The position numbers and the translations under genes were made by a program. The notes beneath the pieces are model-generated. The model saw only the letters and a list, made by a program, of their open reading frames with translations, was not told the DNA's origin and made no database searches. 20,854 nt of DNA, taken from UHGV virus genome UHGV-0059920; one strand, 5' to 3'. Source of the DNA: a virus. Shown here piece after piece: positions 9,368-18,584 of this stretch; the first letter of the stretch is position 1, and each line of letters opens with the position of its first letter.

Positions 9368-11134
9368 ATGAACACCACACTGACACCCGCAGATCTCGAT
9401 CCCCGTCGGCAGGCCATGCTGCTGTACTTTCAGGGATACCGCGTAGCCCGCATTGCTGAAATGCTGGGCGAGAAAGTTGCAACCGTTCACAGCTGGAAAA
9501 AACGCGACAAGTGGGGTGACTATGGGCCTCTGGATCAGATGCAGCTCACCACCGCCGCACGCTACTGCCAGCTCATCATGAAGGAGCACAAAGAAGGGAA
9601 AGATTTCAAAGAGATTGACCTGCTGGCGCGCCAGTCTGAGCGCCACGCGCGGATCGGCAAGTTTAACAATGGCGGCAACGAAGCCGACTTAAACCCTAAC
9701 GTCGCCAACCGCAACAAAGGCCCACGCCGTCAGCCTGAAAAGAATGTTTTCACCGATGACCAGATTGAGAAGCTGGAAGAAATTTTCCATTCCTCCATGT
9801 TCAACTACCAGCGCCACTGGTGGGAAGCCGGAAAAACCAACCGCATCCGCAACCTGCTGAAGTCACGCCAGATCGGCGCGACCTTCTATTTTGCCCGTGA
9901 AGCCCTGATTGACGCCCTGCTTACCGGACGTAACCAGATTTTCCTTTCTGCCAGTAAGGCACAGGCCCACGTCTTCAAACAGTACATCATCGACTTTGCC
10001 AAAGAAGTGGAGGTGGAGCTGAAAGGCGATCCGATGGTGCTTCCCAACGGGGCCACACTGTATTTCCTCGGCACCAATGCCCGCACTGCCCAGAGTTATC
10101 ACGGCAACCTGTATCTGGATGAATATTTCTGGATACCGAAATTCCAGGAGCTGCGCAAAGTGGCTTCCGGTATGGCTATTCACAAGAAATGGCGACAGAC
10201 CTATTTTTCCACGCCATCCAGCCTGACCCACAGTGCTTATCCGTTCTGGTCCGGTGCGCTGTTCAACCGTGGGCGCAACAAAGCCGATAAGGTGGACATC
10301 GACCTGTCCCACAGCAATCTGGCTCCCGGCCTGCTGTGTGCAGACGGGCAATACCGCCAGATAGTCACCGTGGAAGATGCGGTGCGCGGCGGATGTAACC
10401 TGTTCGATCTCGACCAGTTGCGCATGGAGTACAGCCCGGACGAATACCAGAACCTGCTGATGTGCGAGTTCGTGGACGATCTCGCGTCCGTGTTCCCGCT
10501 CAGCGAACTGCAGGCGTGCATGGTGGACAGCTGGGAAGTCTGGACCGACTTTCATGCACTGGCCCTGCGCCCGTTTGGCTGGCGCGAAGTGTGGATCGGT
10601 TATGACCCGGCAAAAGGTACGCAGAACGGCGACAGTGCCGGATGCGTGGTGGTGGCTCCGCCAGCCGTGCCGGGTGGTAAGTTCCGCATTCTTGAGCGTC
10701 ACCAGTGGCGCGGGATGGACTTCCGCGCCCAGGCTGACGCCATCAAAAAACTGACCGAACAGTATAACGTGACCTATATCGGTATCGACTCGACCGGCGT
10801 CGGTCACGGGGTTTACGAGAACGTGAAAGCGTTTTTTCCTGCCGTCAGGGAGTTTGTCTATAACCCCAACGTTAAAAACGCCCTGGTACTCAAGGCCTAC
10901 GACATTATCAGCCACCGCCGTCTGGAGTTTGACGCCGGGCACACCGACATTGCGCAGTCATTTATGGCAATCCGTCGCGCTACCACTGCCAGTGGCAACC
11001 GCCCGACCTATGAAGCCAGCCGCAGCGAAGAAGCCAGCCATGCCGATCTGGCCTGGGCAACAATGCACGCACTGTTTAACGAACCACTGCAGGGCGAGTC
11101 CGCCAATACCAGCAATATTGTGGAGATTTTTTGA
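9368..11134 (+). CDS. P: Terminase ATPase (large) subunit P
   Basis: 588-aa ORF divergent from O; its stop overlaps the Q start (tgATG). Confidence 0.9.
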   Translation: MNTTLTPADLDPRRQAMLLYFQGYRVARIAEMLGEKVATVHSWKKRDKWGDYGPLDQMQLTTAARYCQLIMKEHKEGKDFKEIDLLARQSERHARIGKFNNGGNEADLNPNVANRNKGPRRQPEKNVFTDDQIEKLEEIFHSSMFNYQRHWWEAGKTNRIRNLLKSRQIGATFYFAREALIDALLTGRNQIFLSASKAQAHVFKQYIIDFAKEVEVELKGDPMVLPNGATLYFLGTNARTAQSYHGNLYLDEYFWIPKFQELRKVASGMAIHKKWRQTYFSTPSSLTHSAYPFWSGALFNRGRNKADKVDIDLSHSNLAPGLLCADGQYRQIVTVEDAVRGGCNLFDLDQLRMEYSPDEYQNLLMCEFVDDLASVFPLSELQACMVDSWEVWTDFHALALRPFGWREVWIGYDPAKGTQNGDSAGCVVVAPPAVPGGKFRILERHQWRGMDFRAQADAIKKLTEQYNVTYIGIDSTGVGHGVYENVKAFFPAVREFVYNPNVKNALVLKAYDIISHRRLEFDAGHTDIAQSFMAIRRATTASGNRPTYEASRSEEASHADLAWATMHALFNEPLQGESANTSNIVEIF

Positions 11135-12159
11135 TGGGAAAGAGTAAGAAGAACCGCGCTGCGTCGACGAAACAGATCCAGCATAAAGGCCAGACTTCAG
11201 CCGAAGCATTCAGCTTCGGTGATCCCGTTCCTGTTCTGGACCGCCGCGAACTGCTGGACTATGTGGAATGCGTACAGATGGATCGTTGGTATGAGCCGCC
11301 TGTGAGTTTCGACGGACTGGCGCGAACTTTCCGCGCCGCCGTGCATCACAGCTCACCGATTGCAGTGAAGTGCAACATTCTGACCAGCACCTACATCCCT
11401 CACCCGCTGCTCAGCCAGCAGGCTTTTTCGCGTTTTGTACAGGACTATCTGGTTTTTGGTAACGCCTACCTGGAGAAACGCACGAACCGTTTCGGTGAAG
11501 TTATCGCCCTTGAGCCTGCTCTGGCAAAATACACCCGACGCGGGTTAGACCTGGATACCTACTGGTTTGTGCAATACGGTATGACAACCCAGCCGTATCA
11601 GTTCACGAAAGGCAGCATTTTTCATCTGATGGAACCGGACATCAACCAGGAGATCTACGGCCTGCCAGGTTATCTTTCTGCCATTCCGTCAGCCCTGCTC
11701 AACGAGTCCGCCACGCTGTTCCGCCGTAAGTATTACATTAACGGCAGTCATGCAGGCTTCATCATGTACATGACCGATGCCGCGCAGAACCAGGAGGACG
11801 TGAACAACCTTCGCAATGCGATGAAAAGTGCCAAAGGACCAGGTAACTTCCGCAATCTGTTCATGTACTCGCCTAACGGCAAAAAGGACGGGCTTCAGAT
11901 CATCCCGTTGTCAGAAGTCGCGGCGAAGGATGAGTTTCTGAATATCAAAAATGTCAGCCGCGATGACATGATGGCTGCGCACCGTGTACCGCCACAAATG
12001 ATGGGAATCATGCCGAGTAATGTTGGGGGATTTGGTGATGTTGAAAAAGCCAGCCGCGTCTTTGTCCGCAACGAACTGATGACGTTACAGAAGCGACTGC
12101 AGGAGCTTAACGACTGGCTGGGCGAAGAAATAATTCGCTTCGAACCTTATATGTTTTAG
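11134..12159 (+). CDS. Q: Portal (capsid vertex) protein Q
   Basis: Start refined to ATG at 11134 with GGAG upstream (the ORF-track start at 11131 is a TTG); about 341 aa downstream of P. Confidence 0.9.
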   Translation: MGKSKKNRAASTKQIQHKGQTSAEAFSFGDPVPVLDRRELLDYVECVQMDRWYEPPVSFDGLARTFRAAVHHSSPIAVKCNILTSTYIPHPLLSQQAFSRFVQDYLVFGNAYLEKRTNRFGEVIALEPALAKYTRRGLDLDTYWFVQYGMTTQPYQFTKGSIFHLMEPDINQEIYGLPGYLSAIPSALLNESATLFRRKYYINGSHAGFIMYMTDAAQNQEDVNNLRNAMKSAKGPGNFRNLFMYSPNGKKDGLQIIPLSEVAAKDEFLNIKNVSRDDMMAAHRVPPQMMGIMPSNVGGFGDVEKASRVFVRNELMTLQKRLQELNDWLGEEIIRFEPYMF

Positions 12160-12176
12160 ATATAGATTAGGCTCAG

Positions 12177-12202
12177 AAAGCGCCTGCTACTGCAGGCGCT
12201 TT
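12177..12202. terminator. Bidirectional rho-independent terminator between convergent Q and the 97-aa ORF
   Basis: AAAGCGCCTGC-tact-GCAGGCGCTTT: an 8-bp GC-rich stem flanked by an A-tract and a T-tract, 18 nt after the Q stop. Confidence 0.6.
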
Positions 12203-12204
12203 GT

Positions 12205-12498
12205 TTACTCTTTAACAAGTGTGCCCCACACCGAGTCTTCAACCTCTTCAACAACAATATTGATGTTGCAAATAACATGGTCTTCACTTACTCGAGTATA
12301 TCTGAATAACCTTGATTTCACTTTCCCACCAAACGACTCACGGTCTTCATTGTTGGTAATGTCGACATAATCCCCAACATTCGGAAGCATCAGGAGTGGA
12401 TTGTCTTCCGAAGAACATCTTACAATCTCTCCATCATCAAGAGGTCGCGTATCCCCTTTACGTAAGTATTGAAAGTCATAGTTGTATATGGTTTTCAT
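12205..12498 (-). CDS. Hypothetical 97-aa acidic protein; AT-rich cargo gene between portal gene and cos
   Basis: Single ATG start with AAGGA 8 nt upstream, terminator immediately downstream, visibly AT-rich codon usage unlike the flanking phage genes. No motif recognised. Confidence 0.55.
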   Translation of the reverse strand: MKTIYNYDFQYLRKGDTRPLDDGEIVRCSSEDNPLLMLPNVGDYVDITNNEDRESFGGKVKSRLFRYTRVSEDHVICNINIVVEEVEDSVWGTLVKE

Positions 12499-12677
12499 TG
12501 TCTATCCTTTTGAAAGTAACATCGCTGACGTATGTTGTTTCACAGTTCCATTTCCACATTAAGTCAATGAAATCAACATCATTTAATGTGTGCCAATATA
12601 TTGCAACACGATCCCGAAAACTTCAAATCAATCTCTCCAATACGCGGGATTATTACTTTTTCGCCCCGTTACGCGCG

Positions 12678-12696
12678 CTCGTATCCCCGCCACGCC
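12678..12696. other. Putative cos site (cohesive-end region)
   Basis: Minus strand reads GGCGTGGCGGGGATACGAG. I recall the P2/P4 cohesive end as GGCGAGGCGGGGAAAGCAC and a near-identical one for 186. It lies on the far side of Q from P, where cos sits in P2. Confidence 0.5.
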
Positions 12697-12740
12697 TGCC
12701 CGCTTTGTGTAGTGGTTTTCATGCACCTGCATGACACAAG

Positions 12741-12770
12741 CAAAAGCCCGCCAGCTCTGGCGGGCATCAG
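12741..12770 (-). terminator. Rho-independent terminator, minus-strand orientation
   Basis: GCCCGCCAG-ctc-TGGCGGGC stem followed on the minus strand by TTTTGCTTG; sits after the HNH gene and before cos. Confidence 0.5.
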
Positions 12771-12878
12771 CAAAAACGATCCTCAAACGATCATGCGATT
12801 TCATGCGGCATAGACATGCGTTGGCAAAAATGTACGAAATACTCAGCTTATAGGAAATGGTCTTTTTCCAACCTCCAG

Positions 12879-13598
12879 TTAGCCAAAGCAGAAACCAATA
12901 TTGCAATTTGAAACTCCACAGTTGTGAAATTGATGTGGACCTACTCTTAGCTTGTGTTCGTCTCCTACAATCCGAGTCCCCTTAACCAACATATCTAATC
13001 TTTCCACAATCAATCTTTCAGGCGCATCAACTTTAATAATTAAACGAGGACCTTTCCTTTTTTCTATAATAGTTATTCTAGGACCGACAACCTGAACATC
13101 CCAATGCCTTGCACTACAAACCCACTCATTCTTAATTAATTCAAGATTAACAATACCTTGACTATCGTAAAATTTACCCGAAATAAGAAAAGCATTATTT
13201 TCTTTTTCAATGGTTAACAATGGCTCATTTTGAAACATTATTGGTACAGTACAGGATTCAAACGTCGCACCACCAAATATTATTGTTGGATGCCTATCAG
13301 AAAAGTCCAATATATCGGCCACATTCCCTTTTTGTAAGGCTGCAGGAGATTCCATTGCTTTAATTATTTTCTCTTTAGAGTAAAGACGTTTCGTTACTTT
13401 CGCATGGCACGTAGGACAAAGTAGTGCTATTGCATTTGGAGAGTGCTCCTTTGCATCAGCGTATGTGGGAATTACATGCTCATACTCAACAATGGGAGAA
13501 GCACAAACAACGCAACCGAAGCCACAGCGCTGCCTTACCTCCAGTTTTACAGGTTCAGGAATTGTTCTAGATAACCCATGCTTGTTAATAGTTGTCAT
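12879..13598 (-). CDS. HNH (His-Me finger) nuclease-domain protein with an unrecognised C-terminal domain of about 170 aa; candidate defence or exclusion cargo
   Basis: N-terminal motif RCGFGCVVC...EYEHVIP...SPNAIALLCPTCHAK has the spacing of a zinc-bound HNH core (CxxC, EH, N, CxxCH). AAGGTAAGG RBS upstream; visibly AT-rich. It sits where P2 carries old/tin. Confidence 0.7.
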   Translation of the reverse strand: MTTINKHGLSRTIPEPVKLEVRQRCGFGCVVCASPIVEYEHVIPTYADAKEHSPNAIALLCPTCHAKVTKRLYSKEKIIKAMESPAALQKGNVADILDFSDRHPTIIFGGATFESCTVPIMFQNEPLLTIEKENNAFLISGKFYDSQGIVNLELIKNEWVCSARHWDVQVVGPRITIIEKRKGPRLIIKVDAPERLIVERLDMLVKGTRIVGDEHKLRVGPHQFHNCGVSNCNIGFCFG

Positions 13599-14306: not shown

Positions 14307-16679
14307 TTAATACAGGTTTCGCCACTTATCATCTTCCTGCAAACGCTGGTTCCGATAGAAGATACGCAGGCCTGCTCCTGACGGAATACTGCCGCCGCGA
14401 AGGAGTAAATCGACCTCTTTCTCGCTGCCATCAAATCCTCTGGACTTCAGTTCATAGACGAGCTGCTGTCGCTGATGGTCTGTAATTCGCTGTTTGTAGT
14501 CTTTACGCCGTTTCGGTTTCACCAGGCGTAACCTTGCAGCTAGTTCCCGGCGCTCTTTTTTGCTCATACTGTGCAGGTAATCGTGCAACGCCTTGTCATC
14601 CATGCGGGTAATGTCCGTCCTGGTATCCCCATCAGCTGATTTGTCTTTCCCTTGTTGGTTCAAATTTTCAGCAAGGGGACAGTTATTGCCACGAGTCCAA
14701 GGGGCGCAAGCGCCCTGGTCGGCTGCCGCCTCCTGAACATCAACGGCCTTACGAACCATTTTCCACTTCACGGCATGAGTGCAGATCTTGCCCTCTGCAA
14801 TAGGTGACCAGATGCCATAAATACGAATGCCGTGATCGCCATAGGCGGTCGGCTCTTCGTTGATTTCATAAGCGGTTCTGATGAGGTGATATTTGCGGGG
14901 AACCAGTACGCCGCCCTGCTTCATGATGTAGGTGGCAAAACAACCAGCATCAGCAGCAGCCAGGATGGCATCAAGGCGCGGGTTATCCAGTACCGGCGCA
15001 CCTGCTTTTTTGTCCCCCTGTTGCCTTGCCGCCTGACCAGCCAGCAATCGCAGTTCACGGTAAGCCTGACGCCCCGGAATGCCAAAGAAGCGGAATTGCT
15101 GAACACGATGCAGAGACGCCCAGGCATTAACGTATTCAGCATTATCACGCAGGGATTTCCCCGTTTCCTTGCTGATCTCGCCAGCCAGACCACGCCCGTC
15201 AATGTTCTTACTGATGTATTTCGCGATGTAGCTTGTTGGCGTACCTTTGCGCGGGTTAATCAACTCAGACTTAAAGCGCGGCCCAGTGTTATTGCCCAGT
15301 TCCTCGCGGTCTTCACGGATGGCAAACTTACGCAGTAATGCAGTGATGGCGCGGCGGTCTTTTTTGCGCATAAAACACAACAGGTGCCAGTGAACTGTAC
15401 CGTCATGATGCGGCTCAGCCACCCGCACGCCATACCACCGCAATCCGGCTTTGTGCATCGCCTTACGAAATGCAGCAAACATGCCGACCAGATAATCACT
15501 GCTTTGTCTTACCGTCGCATTTGTCCAAGTTGGGTTGGGCCTGCCATTATTTAGCGTGGAATGGAAACGTGACGGACAGGTGATGGTGTAGAAAACGGCG
15601 CAGTCACCGCGCATTTCCGCGATAAGCTCCAGGCCTTTAACACAGGCCATCATCTCATTGCGGCGATGCGCAGGGTTGCTGCTGCTGGCGTTTACCACAT
15701 CCTCCATGTCCAGCGTGTCGCCGTCTTCGTTCACCAGTTCATGAGAACGAAAAAACTCCAGCGACTTACGGCGCTGCTCACGTTTATGCATCACGGCTTC
15801 ATAGCTGACATAGGGAGATGCTTTTTTGCTGACCAGGCAGACAGCACGCAACTGCTCTTCCCGCCATTCGCAACGCATCTTCCATAATTTCCGGTACCAC
15901 CAGTCAGCGCACAACATACGCGCCAGCGAACCCGGAATGAGTTCATAGGGCACGGGTTTACGGCGGTTTCTTTTCCGGCGGAGTTGCTCAAACGCAGGCG
16001 GGATGACATCCAGACGCAGGGTTTCCGCTGCCACCTTTTCCCATGTCTTGCGGATTTCTTCTGGCTTAACGTCATCGGTGACATACAAATCGCCACAAGC
16101 TGCATCAAGGCACATGCTCATATGCGCAGCTACCAGGGTGGACAGGCGTTTCACCTGATCCTGACTCATTTCAGGCAGGATCAGCAGGCCGTCCAGCCCT
16201 TCATGGCTTGCCATAAAGCGAAAAGAAGTGGATAGCTGACAGTCGCGTACATGCTCCAGCCGTTCCAGACATGGCTTAATCGTCTCACGCAAATAGCGGG
16301 AATAAGCCTTTGGCCTGCCCAGGCTGCTGAAGTATTCAATACGTTGCATCAGTGGCTTGCTGATATGGGAAGGCTGGGCATTAACGTCCGCCAGAATGAC
16401 CATATCTGGATTAAAACGCTGCTGCTCATGCGCCAGCTTTGCCCGACTAATGAGCTTATCCTGCTCCATTTCGCGCTGGACAGGATCACGGGATTCATTA
16501 AAGAAATAACGCTCCCAGACCTGATCACTCAGTGCCTCGCGGCGCAGCTGTTCCTGCTCGTTATCGGCAGCGTACAGAGCGATCAGGTTTGAAAGCGCAG
16601 AAACTGAAGATTGCTCTTCCGTCTCTACGTAAGGATTGATTGCTTTTTTCTCAGCATTCCAGGAATAGCTGTAGTTCAT
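14307..16679 (-). CDS. A: Replication initiator endonuclease A (rolling-circle nickase)
   Basis: About 790 aa with HxH metal motif ([11 protein letters not shown]) and the active-site tyrosine region ([12 protein letters not shown]). Start taken as ATG at 16679, overlapping the upstream stop (TAATG); the ORF-track start at 16730 is a TTG. Confidence 0.9.
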
Positions 16680-17500
16680 TACGCAATCTCCAGTTCGAGC
16701 TGTGAAGGCTGCAAACCATTCGACAGCCAATCAGAAACTGAAGGTGGGCGAACAGCTTCAATTGCACCTTTTAAAATTGCGCAACGGTTTTTCAGAATGA
16801 CAGCTTTCAGCTCCTTTTCCGTCAGATTGCGCGAATACTCAGCCTCCTGAATAGCCCGCGTCAGCTCAGGATATTTGCTATTAAATTTGGGGACATTGCA
16901 GGCAAGATTTGTACTGTCGGCAGTCGCCAGTGGGTAATTTCCCAACACACGACCGTCAAGCATGCGCAAACCATGAACAGCTGTTTTGAAATTGTGTCGG
17001 CAATAAATTGCTTCAAAAGCGTCCTGCATACGACGATGCCAGTGCGCAGTTCTGATAGCCGCATATTCACCAGACGATCCAAAGCAGACACGAGGCCATT
17101 CACGACATAGCTCGATAAGCCGATCGATTGACTCGTGCAGATGCCAGACGGGAGTTGCCTTCCCGTAGAACATTTTCGGAACTTCGTTTATCAGGGCATC
17201 ATTGTCACGTTCACCTCCGTCCACAACATCAGGAATGACAAAAAAAGCGACCTTAGGATGGTGGTAATAGTTCAGGAGCCATTTATAAAAATCACTCCAG
17301 TTAATTTTTAGCCCACGCACCCATGCAGAAAATGCGCCGTTATCAATGCCGACGACCTGAGCGTGCTGAATGGACGCCGCAATCTGATCTGGTCGTACAT
17401 AGGAGACGAAAGCGCCAGCTCCGCTCACCGCAATACGATGAACGTCGCCAGCACTTCCCCAGACAGGCGTCCCATGGAAATGATGAATTCCGTGGTGCAT
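16679..17500 (-). CDS. Hypothetical protein of about 273 aa, translationally coupled between dam and A
   Basis: ATG at 17500, 5 nt after the Dam stop; its own stop overlaps the A start. No motif I can assign by eye. Confidence 0.6.
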
Positions 17501-17505
17501 TTCTT

Positions 17506-18360
17506 TCACACTTGCACCCCGAAAATAACAGTAGAGTCACGTCCCCTACTAAAATCGGCACTAAACCAATTAGCAGATTTAGTGGCAATCATCTCTGTTG
17601 CAAATTTTCCCTCCCCCGCTGCAACGCCGATGCTGCGTTTCGCCCTGATGTAGTGGTGAGTGAAATTACGATAAAGGGACCGGGTCAAAGACGTGTTACT
17701 GTTAGAAACAATGACCGGATGTCCTTCTGATGACCGATGTTCAAGAATGGATGCCAGGTGATACTGATCATCTTCAGTGAAACCATCAGTGTGATAGCCG
17801 GAAAACGTACCGTCATAAGGCGGATCGCAATACACCACATCCCCCACCTTCAACATCGCCAGCGTTTCATCAAAGCTGGCGCAGATAAACGTTGCCCGCT
17901 GGGCTTTCTCTGCAAATGCGCGAATTTCTTTTTCAGGGAAATACGGATTTTTATAATTACCGTAGGGAATGTTGAAATGCCCGCTCTTGTTATAGCGACA
18001 TAAACCACGGTAACCGTGACGATTGAGATACAGGAAATATACCGCTTTCATGAAATCAGTAATTTCAGTGGAGTAATTAAACTCCTGCCTTATGTTGTAA
18101 TAAGCCACCTCCCTGTTTGCTTCCTCAAATAAAGCTCTGGCACGAGATATAAACGCCTCACAATCAGCAGCAACCTTTTTATAGAGGTTGATTAAATCAG
18201 GATTAATATCCGCAACAAGATAGCTGGGGTAATCCGTCTCCATCATCACTGCACAGGAACCCGCGAAAGGTTCAACCAGTCGCGGGCCAGCAGGAAGATG
18301 CTTTTTCAGTTCGGACATTATGGCGGTTTTATTTCCTGCCCATTTCAGGATGGTGCTCAT
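17506..18360 (-). CDS. dam: DNA adenine methyltransferase, Dam-like
   Basis: Motifs KWAGNK, EPFAGS and DPPY; ATG at 18360 with GGAGGTG upstream (the ORF-track start at 18420 is a TTG). Confidence 0.85.
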
Positions 18361-18584
18361 ACAGCACCTCCGTTGTAATGTTTGCCTTTCAGCTCTGCGA
18401 TTTCCTGACAGGTAATGCAAAGCTGCACACCCGGAATGGCACGGCGGCGTGCTGGCGGAATTGGCGCTTCACACTCAACGCAAAGCACGCGGGACACGCC
18501 CGGCGTTTTGGCACGGGCAGCACGGATATGGCGTTGGCGTTCTTCTTCAACGCGCTGCTGTACGAGATCCATTGCATCAGCCAT
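18357..18584 (-). CDS. TraR/DksA-family C4 zinc-finger protein
   Basis: 75 aa with CVECEAPIP...CITCQ (CxxC...CxxC); AGGAGA RBS; sits where P2 has small early ORFs between B and A. Confidence 0.75.
   Translation of the reverse strand: MADAMDLVQQRVEEERQRHIRAARAKTPGVSRVLCVECEAPIPPARRRAIPGVQLCITCQEIAELKGKHYNGGAV

Follow-up and report, generated by a model that had tools for sequence, protein, structure and literature searches.

What is a short, AT-rich gene doing between the portal gene and the cohesive-end site of a P2-like prophage? The question is raised by UHGV-0059920, the virus genome whose whole stretch of 20,854 nucleotides forms the window analyzed here and supplies all coordinates below. 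The window is a P2-like Escherichia coli prophage, and the gene in question, here called ORF97, is a minus-strand open reading frame (ORF) of 97 amino acids (aa) that lies between the portal gene Q and cos (12205-12498). Our analysis revealed that ORF97 belongs to a conserved protein family and occupies an exchangeable slot within a known P2 defence hotspot, where it is in all probability autonomous cargo unconnected with the HNH gene across cos. We put the probability that this autonomous cargo encodes a small binding or inhibitor protein acting in phage-host conflict at roughly 0.6.

The genes on which the argument depends are as follows.

9368-11134, plus strand: P, terminase
11131-12159, plus strand: Q, portal, 342 aa
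12205-12498, minus strand: ORF97, a 97-aa acidic protein (from the ORF list; annotated in RefSeq in strains 11PC and M9682-C1)
12879-13598, minus strand: HNH-domain protein (Pfam HNH over residues 29-71; phrog_6544)
14307-16730, minus strand: replication gene A

Past Q, the minus strand carries ORF97, cos, the HNH gene, a DinI-like gene, an ORF of 62-96 aa and gene A, in that order. The original prediction described an acidic 97-aa product encoded on the strand opposite Q and as AT-rich as the HNH gene, and each of these points held. ORF97 starts with ATG and converges on Q, whose stop lies at 12159; its product has an isoelectric point (pI) of 4.65 (family median 4.7) and a net charge of -7; and its G+C content of 40.1% is close to that of the HNH gene (38.3%), compared with 52.1% for Q and 56.3% for P. 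Prophages covering at least 80% of the window were found in more than 900 E. coli complete genomes. The 800 bp around ORF97 were 100% identical to strain 11PC, in which the identical protein, WP_000849765.1, is annotated as a hypothetical protein. Several E. coli prophages bearing ORF97 were degraded, as in 11PC and M9682-C1, with a truncated portal gene, deleted tail or capsid genes, or IS1 inserted in GAPS4-like genes; ORF97 was intact and identical in 11PC and M9682-C1 despite this decay.

The interval between gpA and gpQ beside cos is a published P2 defence hotspot (Rousset 2022, PMC9122126), and was likewise described by Vassallo 2022 (PMC9519451) and Moura de Sousa 2026 (PMC13586616). 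Known as the "TO region" or P2 defence hotspot #1, it carries cargo including old, tin, AbiU, retrons and PARIS-like systems. The ORF97 locus shares with it the position between A and Q next to cos, the AT-richness, the variability among near-identical prophages and the orientation of the cargo. It differs in the much smaller size of ORF97 compared with typical systems and in the lack of a match between ORF97 and any catalogued defence family. A further difference concerns the side of cos: ORF97 is on the Q side, but P2 carries old and tin on the gene-A side, a division that the published definitions do not make.

To place the Q side in a wider setting, 80 P2-like loci were surveyed, one genome per species, and cos was located in 67 of them. 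In 52 of the 67 loci, 430-2676 bp of cargo, almost all of low G+C content, separated Q from cos, and the largest ORF of these loaded intervals was usually on the strand opposite Q. The other 15 had a short G+C-rich spacer of 108-256 bp. A loaded Q side is thus the usual arrangement, and P2 departs from it. The slot is thus not the second, additional one that had been proposed but part of the single published gpA-gpQ hotspot. The accompanying claim of real, AT-rich cargo in a Q-cos slot of variable content was borne out for ORF97: it lies between A and Q beside cos, it is present, absent or replaced among homologous prophages, and its G+C content is deviant (39% versus 52-56%). It is also rare. 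No homologue was present among the 80 species-level loci, and ORF97 or a 69%-identical allele was carried by 12 of 5,426 E. coli complete genomes, approximately 1,250-1,400 of which contain a P2-like prophage region. In E. coli PSS-11 (NZ_AP027694.1; locus L133:1073-2839), which has an identical HNH gene, the Q-cos slot holds a 588-aa AIPR/AbiU protein (PADLOC AbiU, E = 5e-24), direct evidence that a catalogued defence gene occupies this position.

The limits of the slot were defined from the following features, none of which is assigned to a strand.

12160-12664: exchangeable cargo module, beginning after the Q stop and ending about 13 bp short of the cohesive end, 505 bp, 39% G+C (sister-prophage alignment)
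12665-12819: conserved cos flank, nearly all of it on the gene-A (HNH) side (megablast)
12678-12696: cos core, the cohesive-end region (alignment to the P2 right end and cosR)

The cos core was identified in the reverse complement, where GGCGTGGCGGGGATACGAG corresponds to GGCGAGGCGGGGAAAGCAC of P2 and the flank AAGCGGGC.GGCG is common to both. The core GCGGGCAGGCGTGGCGGGG was also found upstream of every P2-like homologue of ORF97, 106-394 bp from the start of the gene. Measured from the Q stop, cos lies at 519 bp, in agreement with the original estimate of about 520 bp. The spacer of P2 had been put at about 130 bp; with cosL at 1-19 and Q starting at 187 it is approximately 167 nt, which is near the earlier figure.

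The window was then aligned with two E. coli prophages that have an identical HNH gene, one with an empty slot and one with AbiU in it. Homology to both resumed only about 13 bp before the cohesive end, at CCCCGTT.CGCGCGCTCGTATCCCCGCC, and the cargo module therefore extends from 12160 to 12664. Megablast matches in 45 phage records and 1,254 E. coli genomes ran from query position 559-573 to 720; the stretch common to other P2-like phages is thus 12658/12672 to 12819, comprising cos and approximately 120 bp on the gene-A side. The flank recognized by terminase is located almost wholly on the gene-A side, and the DNA between the Q stop and a point some 13 bp short of the cohesive end is thereby free to be swapped. 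Two further ORFs span cos, one of 112 aa on the plus strand (12396-12734) and one of 92 aa on the minus strand (12628-12906), and a counterpart of the latter is annotated as hypothetical in strain PSS-11. In linear virion DNA each of them would be interrupted, and neither is likely to be genuine.

A short ORF in an AT-rich spacer could be a chance reading frame or a decaying remnant, and ORF97 is indeed short, has no annotated function and yielded no detectable promoter. Analysis of the family effectively refuted this explanation. ORF97 matched phrog_12676 over its entire length (residues 1-97 against profile positions 1-97 of 97, E = 5.1e-49, 165 bits) and is a full member of this PHROGs v4 family, which has no functional annotation. 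A word-indexed search recovered 89 family clusters at 90% identity, and an exhaustive hidden Markov model search of 1.84 billion representatives (E <= 1e-3) recovered 215 clusters at 50% identity. The description of ORF97 as an orphan is thus no longer tenable. Nearly all members were stand-alone proteins of 90-100 aa. No genuine domain fusion was found among the 215 clusters; the longer proteins were start-codon or frameshift artefacts, and one had a TetR N-terminus attached to a partial domain. The alignment contained eleven invariant columns, invariant residues including D43, R63, C77, E84 and E85, and the motifs LPNVGDYV, GKVKSRLFxY and CxVNIVVEE were retained from Enterobacteriaceae to Comamonas, Agrobacterium, Sphingomonas and Desulfuromonas, so that both length and motifs are kept across the alpha-, beta-, gamma- and deltaproteobacteria. 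The ratio of nonsynonymous to synonymous substitution rates (dN/dS) between ORF97 and alleles of 68-88% identity was 0.09-0.16. The reading frame is kept across related prophages and beyond, and together with a confidently predicted fold (below) these sequence comparisons show that ORF97 encodes a true protein on which purifying selection acts. A literature search on phrog_12676 and WP_000849765 found no paper mentioning the family.

It had also been suggested that ORF97 works together with the HNH protein. The two genes are adjacent in the integrated prophage, lie on the same strand and are similarly AT-rich, and they occur together in strain 11PC; moreover, a 68%-identical allele of ORF97, WP_000859244, shares one contig with the same HNH protein (Rousset Table S5). 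A role for ORF97 as an immunity protein, antitoxin or second component acting with the HNH protein across cos would account for this arrangement. The distribution of the two genes argues strongly against it. Among E. coli complete genomes, the HNH gene was present in 21 and the ORF97 family in 12, and both were found only in 11PC; 20 of the 21 genomes with the HNH gene lacked ORF97, and 11 of the 12 with the ORF97 family lacked the HNH gene and carried GAPS4-like genes or a P-loop NTPase in its place. The same HNH protein was also encoded in prophages whose Q-cos slot was empty or was filled by AbiU. Conversely, the partners of ORF97 alleles across cos included no fewer than seven other cargos. 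GAPS4-like genes, a P-loop NTPase, DUF6694, HipA/HIRAN or an 86-aa ORF were found there, and WP_000859244 was accompanied by HEPN, by DUF2971 and, once, by the HNH gene. The two sides of cos are thus filled independently of each other, which excludes an obligate pairing of ORF97 with the HNH gene. In addition, cos and a terminator-like hairpin (12746-12765) lie between the two genes, and in linear virion DNA they are at opposite ends of the genome. Any joint action of the two proteins is therefore very improbable.

The HNH protein matched Pfam HNH only over residues 29-71, its other approximately 170 aa were without a match, and phrog_6544 has no assigned function. In E. coli the HNH gene was always at least 99% identical where it occurred (21 of 5,426 complete genomes), and it is listed as "hypothetical" in Table S5 of Rousset 2022 (PMC9122126).

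Within P2-like loci the position of the ORF97 family was constant. In alleles of 56-100% identity from E. coli, Salmonella, Citrobacter and IMG/VR contigs, the gene was always the first after cos, just inside the left end, and read towards Q; three loci had more cargo between the homologue and Q, and in Serratia marcescens a homologue lay beside a portal remnant in a degraded prophage. Whether homologues always sit between Q and cos had been posed as a check: they did so in P2-like loci, but the family as a whole was also found in other phages, on plasmids and in chromosomes. In Comamonas prophages, TerL, the homologue and the portal gene were on one strand with gaps of 15-20 bp, and in another phage type the homologue was divergent from an operon of TerS (Sf6-type), TerL and portal genes.

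Three unrelated phage types thus have the gene next to their packaging module (cos-gene-Q-P in P2-like phages, TerL-gene-portal in Comamonas and the divergent TerS operon), as would be expected of an accessory protein for packaging or head assembly that acts with terminase, portal or cos. The gene must be dispensable for packaging, since approximately 99% of E. coli genomes with a P2-like region and all 80 species-level loci (0/80) do without it. Homologues also occur far from any phage, on plasmids, beside insertion sequence (IS) elements and in housekeeping chromosomal contexts, and accessory genes of all kinds insert at the borders of packaging modules. We consider a packaging role improbable.

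Other contexts were more varied. One homologue directly followed a DUF4238 gene, beside a Zot gene; DUF4238 is a defence gene validated by Rousset 2022 (PMC9122126). Homologues also lay beside IS110 in Alishewanella, where AbiTii is nearby, and in Desulfuromonas. In a lambdoid Serratia liquefaciens prophage (L220:5001-7816) the homologue occupied the int-proximal accessory region with UmuD, UmuC and SRAP within 3 kb, and on conjugative Pseudomonas syringae plasmids it was found among small hypothetical genes on the same strand, with SRAP nearby (L214, pMUP32a). An S24 peptidase was encoded near the homologue in locus L016. When neighbours were clustered over 116 loci, taking two genes on each side, no partner was common to the whole family, and the only recurrent neighbours were the P2 portal and terminase genes and one synteny block specific to a subfamily. 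A toxin-antitoxin or immunity pair was also considered and is disfavoured, as there was no family-wide partner and the HNH gene was mostly apart from ORF97.

The proximity of UmuD, UmuC and SRAP, of SRAP alone, of an S24 peptidase and of a CinA-like gene to homologues in unrelated elements would fit a modulator of the SOS or RecA response, similar to DinI or PsiB, and ORF97 is likewise small and acidic with an acidic C-terminal helix. SOS and translesion genes are, however, common cargo of mobile elements; the association may be due to chance, and half of the contexts contained none of these genes. A search of the 260 bp preceding each of 21 homologues revealed no LexA box, and ORF97 resembled DinI, PsiB and RecX in neither fold nor sequence. 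An SOS-modulating function is thus unlikely.

Structure prediction with AlphaFold2 from a 64-sequence alignment gave a confident model (pLDDT, the predicted local distance difference test score, 90.4; predicted template modelling (TM) score 0.81). The model comprised a long N-terminal strand, an extended conserved loop containing RPxDDG and LPNVGDYV, a long beta-hairpin and a short C-terminal helix. Searches with Foldseek against the PDB returned nothing below E = 0.19, and BFVD returned only uncharacterised small phage proteins (E >= 1.4e-3, TM score approximately 0.5). Scans of ORF97 and 64 family members against Pfam, NCBIfam and PADLOC yielded nothing significant, no defence family of PADLOC-DB v2 matched ORF97 at E <= 1, and no sequence or fold similarity to solved anti-defence proteins was detected. 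The product contained neither a transmembrane segment nor a catalytic signature.

A profile search of the PDB gave a weak GD-box match to designed double-psi beta-barrels (DPBB; E = 1e-3 for the whole sequence, 0.6 per domain). The resemblance to the GD-box or cradle-loop barrels (DPBB, AbrB/MazE-like) is local, with RPxDDGxxV...LPNVGDYV in ORF97 corresponding to RPEDVGxxIV...LGVSVGDYVEV in the designed DPBB, and fold searches with the ORF97 model retrieved no DPBB or AbrB structures. A PilZ domain, suggested by the UniRef name of one homologue (P0058), was rejected as there was no match to the PilZ profile or to the PilZ beta-barrel fold.

Ocr, ArdA, Ugi, many anti-CRISPRs and DinI are small acidic inhibitor proteins of phages and plasmids. 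ORF97 shares their general character alone: approximately 100 aa, acidic, soluble, encoded by a single gene and carried by several kinds of mobile element. It differs from them in that no solved protein resembles it in sequence or fold, and in its absence from GenBank phage records (below).

Expression signals around the gene were also analyzed.

12177-12202, no strand assigned: G+C-rich hairpin in the gap where Q and ORF97 converge (terminator scan)
12505-12509, minus strand: Shine-Dalgarno-like AAGGA, 6 nt 5' of the ORF97 ATG (read from the sequence)

The AAGGA motif agrees with the original prediction that ORF97 has its own ribosome-binding site, and GGA was also found upstream of several homologues. 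A bidirectional terminator between Q and ORF97 had been proposed as well. In the hairpin at 12177-12202, 7 of the 11 bp of the stem are G-C pairs. A T-run comes after the stem on the plus (Q) strand, but just TTT on the minus strand; judged by these features the hairpin serves Q well as a terminator and ORF97 only partially, so that the proposal stood for Q and only in part for the opposite direction. An upstream alignment of homologues was too divergent to show any conserved promoter, and an Rfam scan of 12000-13000 gave no match. Downstream of the HNH gene, the terminator-like hairpin at 12746-12765 (minus strand) consists of GCCCGCCAGAGCTGGCGGGC followed by TTTTGC; located inside the conserved cos flank, it may be part of the conserved cos region besides ending transcription from the gene-A side.

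Away from cos, a 276-aa ORF (16679-17509, minus strand) lies between a Dam methylase gene (17506-18420) and gene A and had no Pfam or PADLOC match. It is present in 11PC and absent from sister prophages in which the methylase gene abuts gene A, and looks like another variable cargo position.

With these alternatives weighed, we return to autonomous cargo encoding a small binding or inhibitor protein. ORF97 is a self-contained single-gene module carried in the Q-side half of the cos-adjacent hotspot. Its product is predicted to be compact, soluble, acidic and mostly beta, and would act alone by stoichiometric binding of a conserved macromolecular target; being small, soluble and acidic, with no catalytic signature and no obligate partner, and conserved in a way that points to a specific ligand, it probably binds such a target. 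Three outcomes of this one mechanism, rather than three mechanisms, can be envisaged. Exclusion or defence by the lysogen is possible; it is favoured by the hotspot setting, by the AbiU allele that can fill this slot, by the proximity of DUF4238 to one homologue and by confinement to prophages. Counter-defence or inhibition can be proposed just as tentatively, if not slightly more readily, and some other form of host modulation is slightly less likely; the size and charge of the protein and its carriage by phages, plasmids and IS islands favour these two. Exclusion or defence on the one hand, and counter-defence or host modulation on the other, fit the evidence about equally well.

Several observations weigh against this reading. 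A consensus promoter scan of the ORF97 strand detected none; the best candidate (TTGCAA-17-AATGAT, 12578-12606) agreed at just 8 of 12 positions, so that any expression in the lysogen is putative. No homologue was found by tblastn with two family members in 50,697 GenBank phage records, which is atypical for a common counter-defence gene, and a soluble protein of 97 aa is atypical as a stand-alone defence system. Copies in Kushneria chromosomes had ordinary surroundings. A distant subfamily (approximately 35-39% identity) showed conserved chromosomal synteny, with a CinA-like gene (MoCF_biosynth plus FLAD1_M), a small ORF, the homologue and a convergent CcmH/CycH-type TPR gene, in metagenome loci L186, L198, L201, L202, L207, L213 and others. 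This arrangement suggests a vertically inherited, cellular version of the family. Together with the Kushneria copies it hints at a housekeeping role unrelated to conflict, and the subfamily leaves room for a physiological role.

For the biology of P2-like prophages the slot itself adds little, as the hotspot had already been mapped in three papers. What changes is its internal structure: the hotspot consists of two independently assorting halves split by cos, with exchange on the Q side reaching up to about 13 bp from the cohesive end, and the idea of ORF97 as a partner of the HNH protein can be dropped. ORF97 belongs to a conserved and widespread family with a confident fold and no solved match, and is thus a cheap, well-defined candidate for screens of defence and counter-defence. 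Tentatively, the family may represent a new group of acidic, mostly-beta proteins of approximately 95 aa with an unseen fold, spread by phages, plasmids and IS islands and acting as lone stoichiometric inhibitors in exclusion or counter-defence. If this is true, a single 97-aa exclusion or anti-defence factor would be a new minimal module in the toolkit of phage-host conflict.
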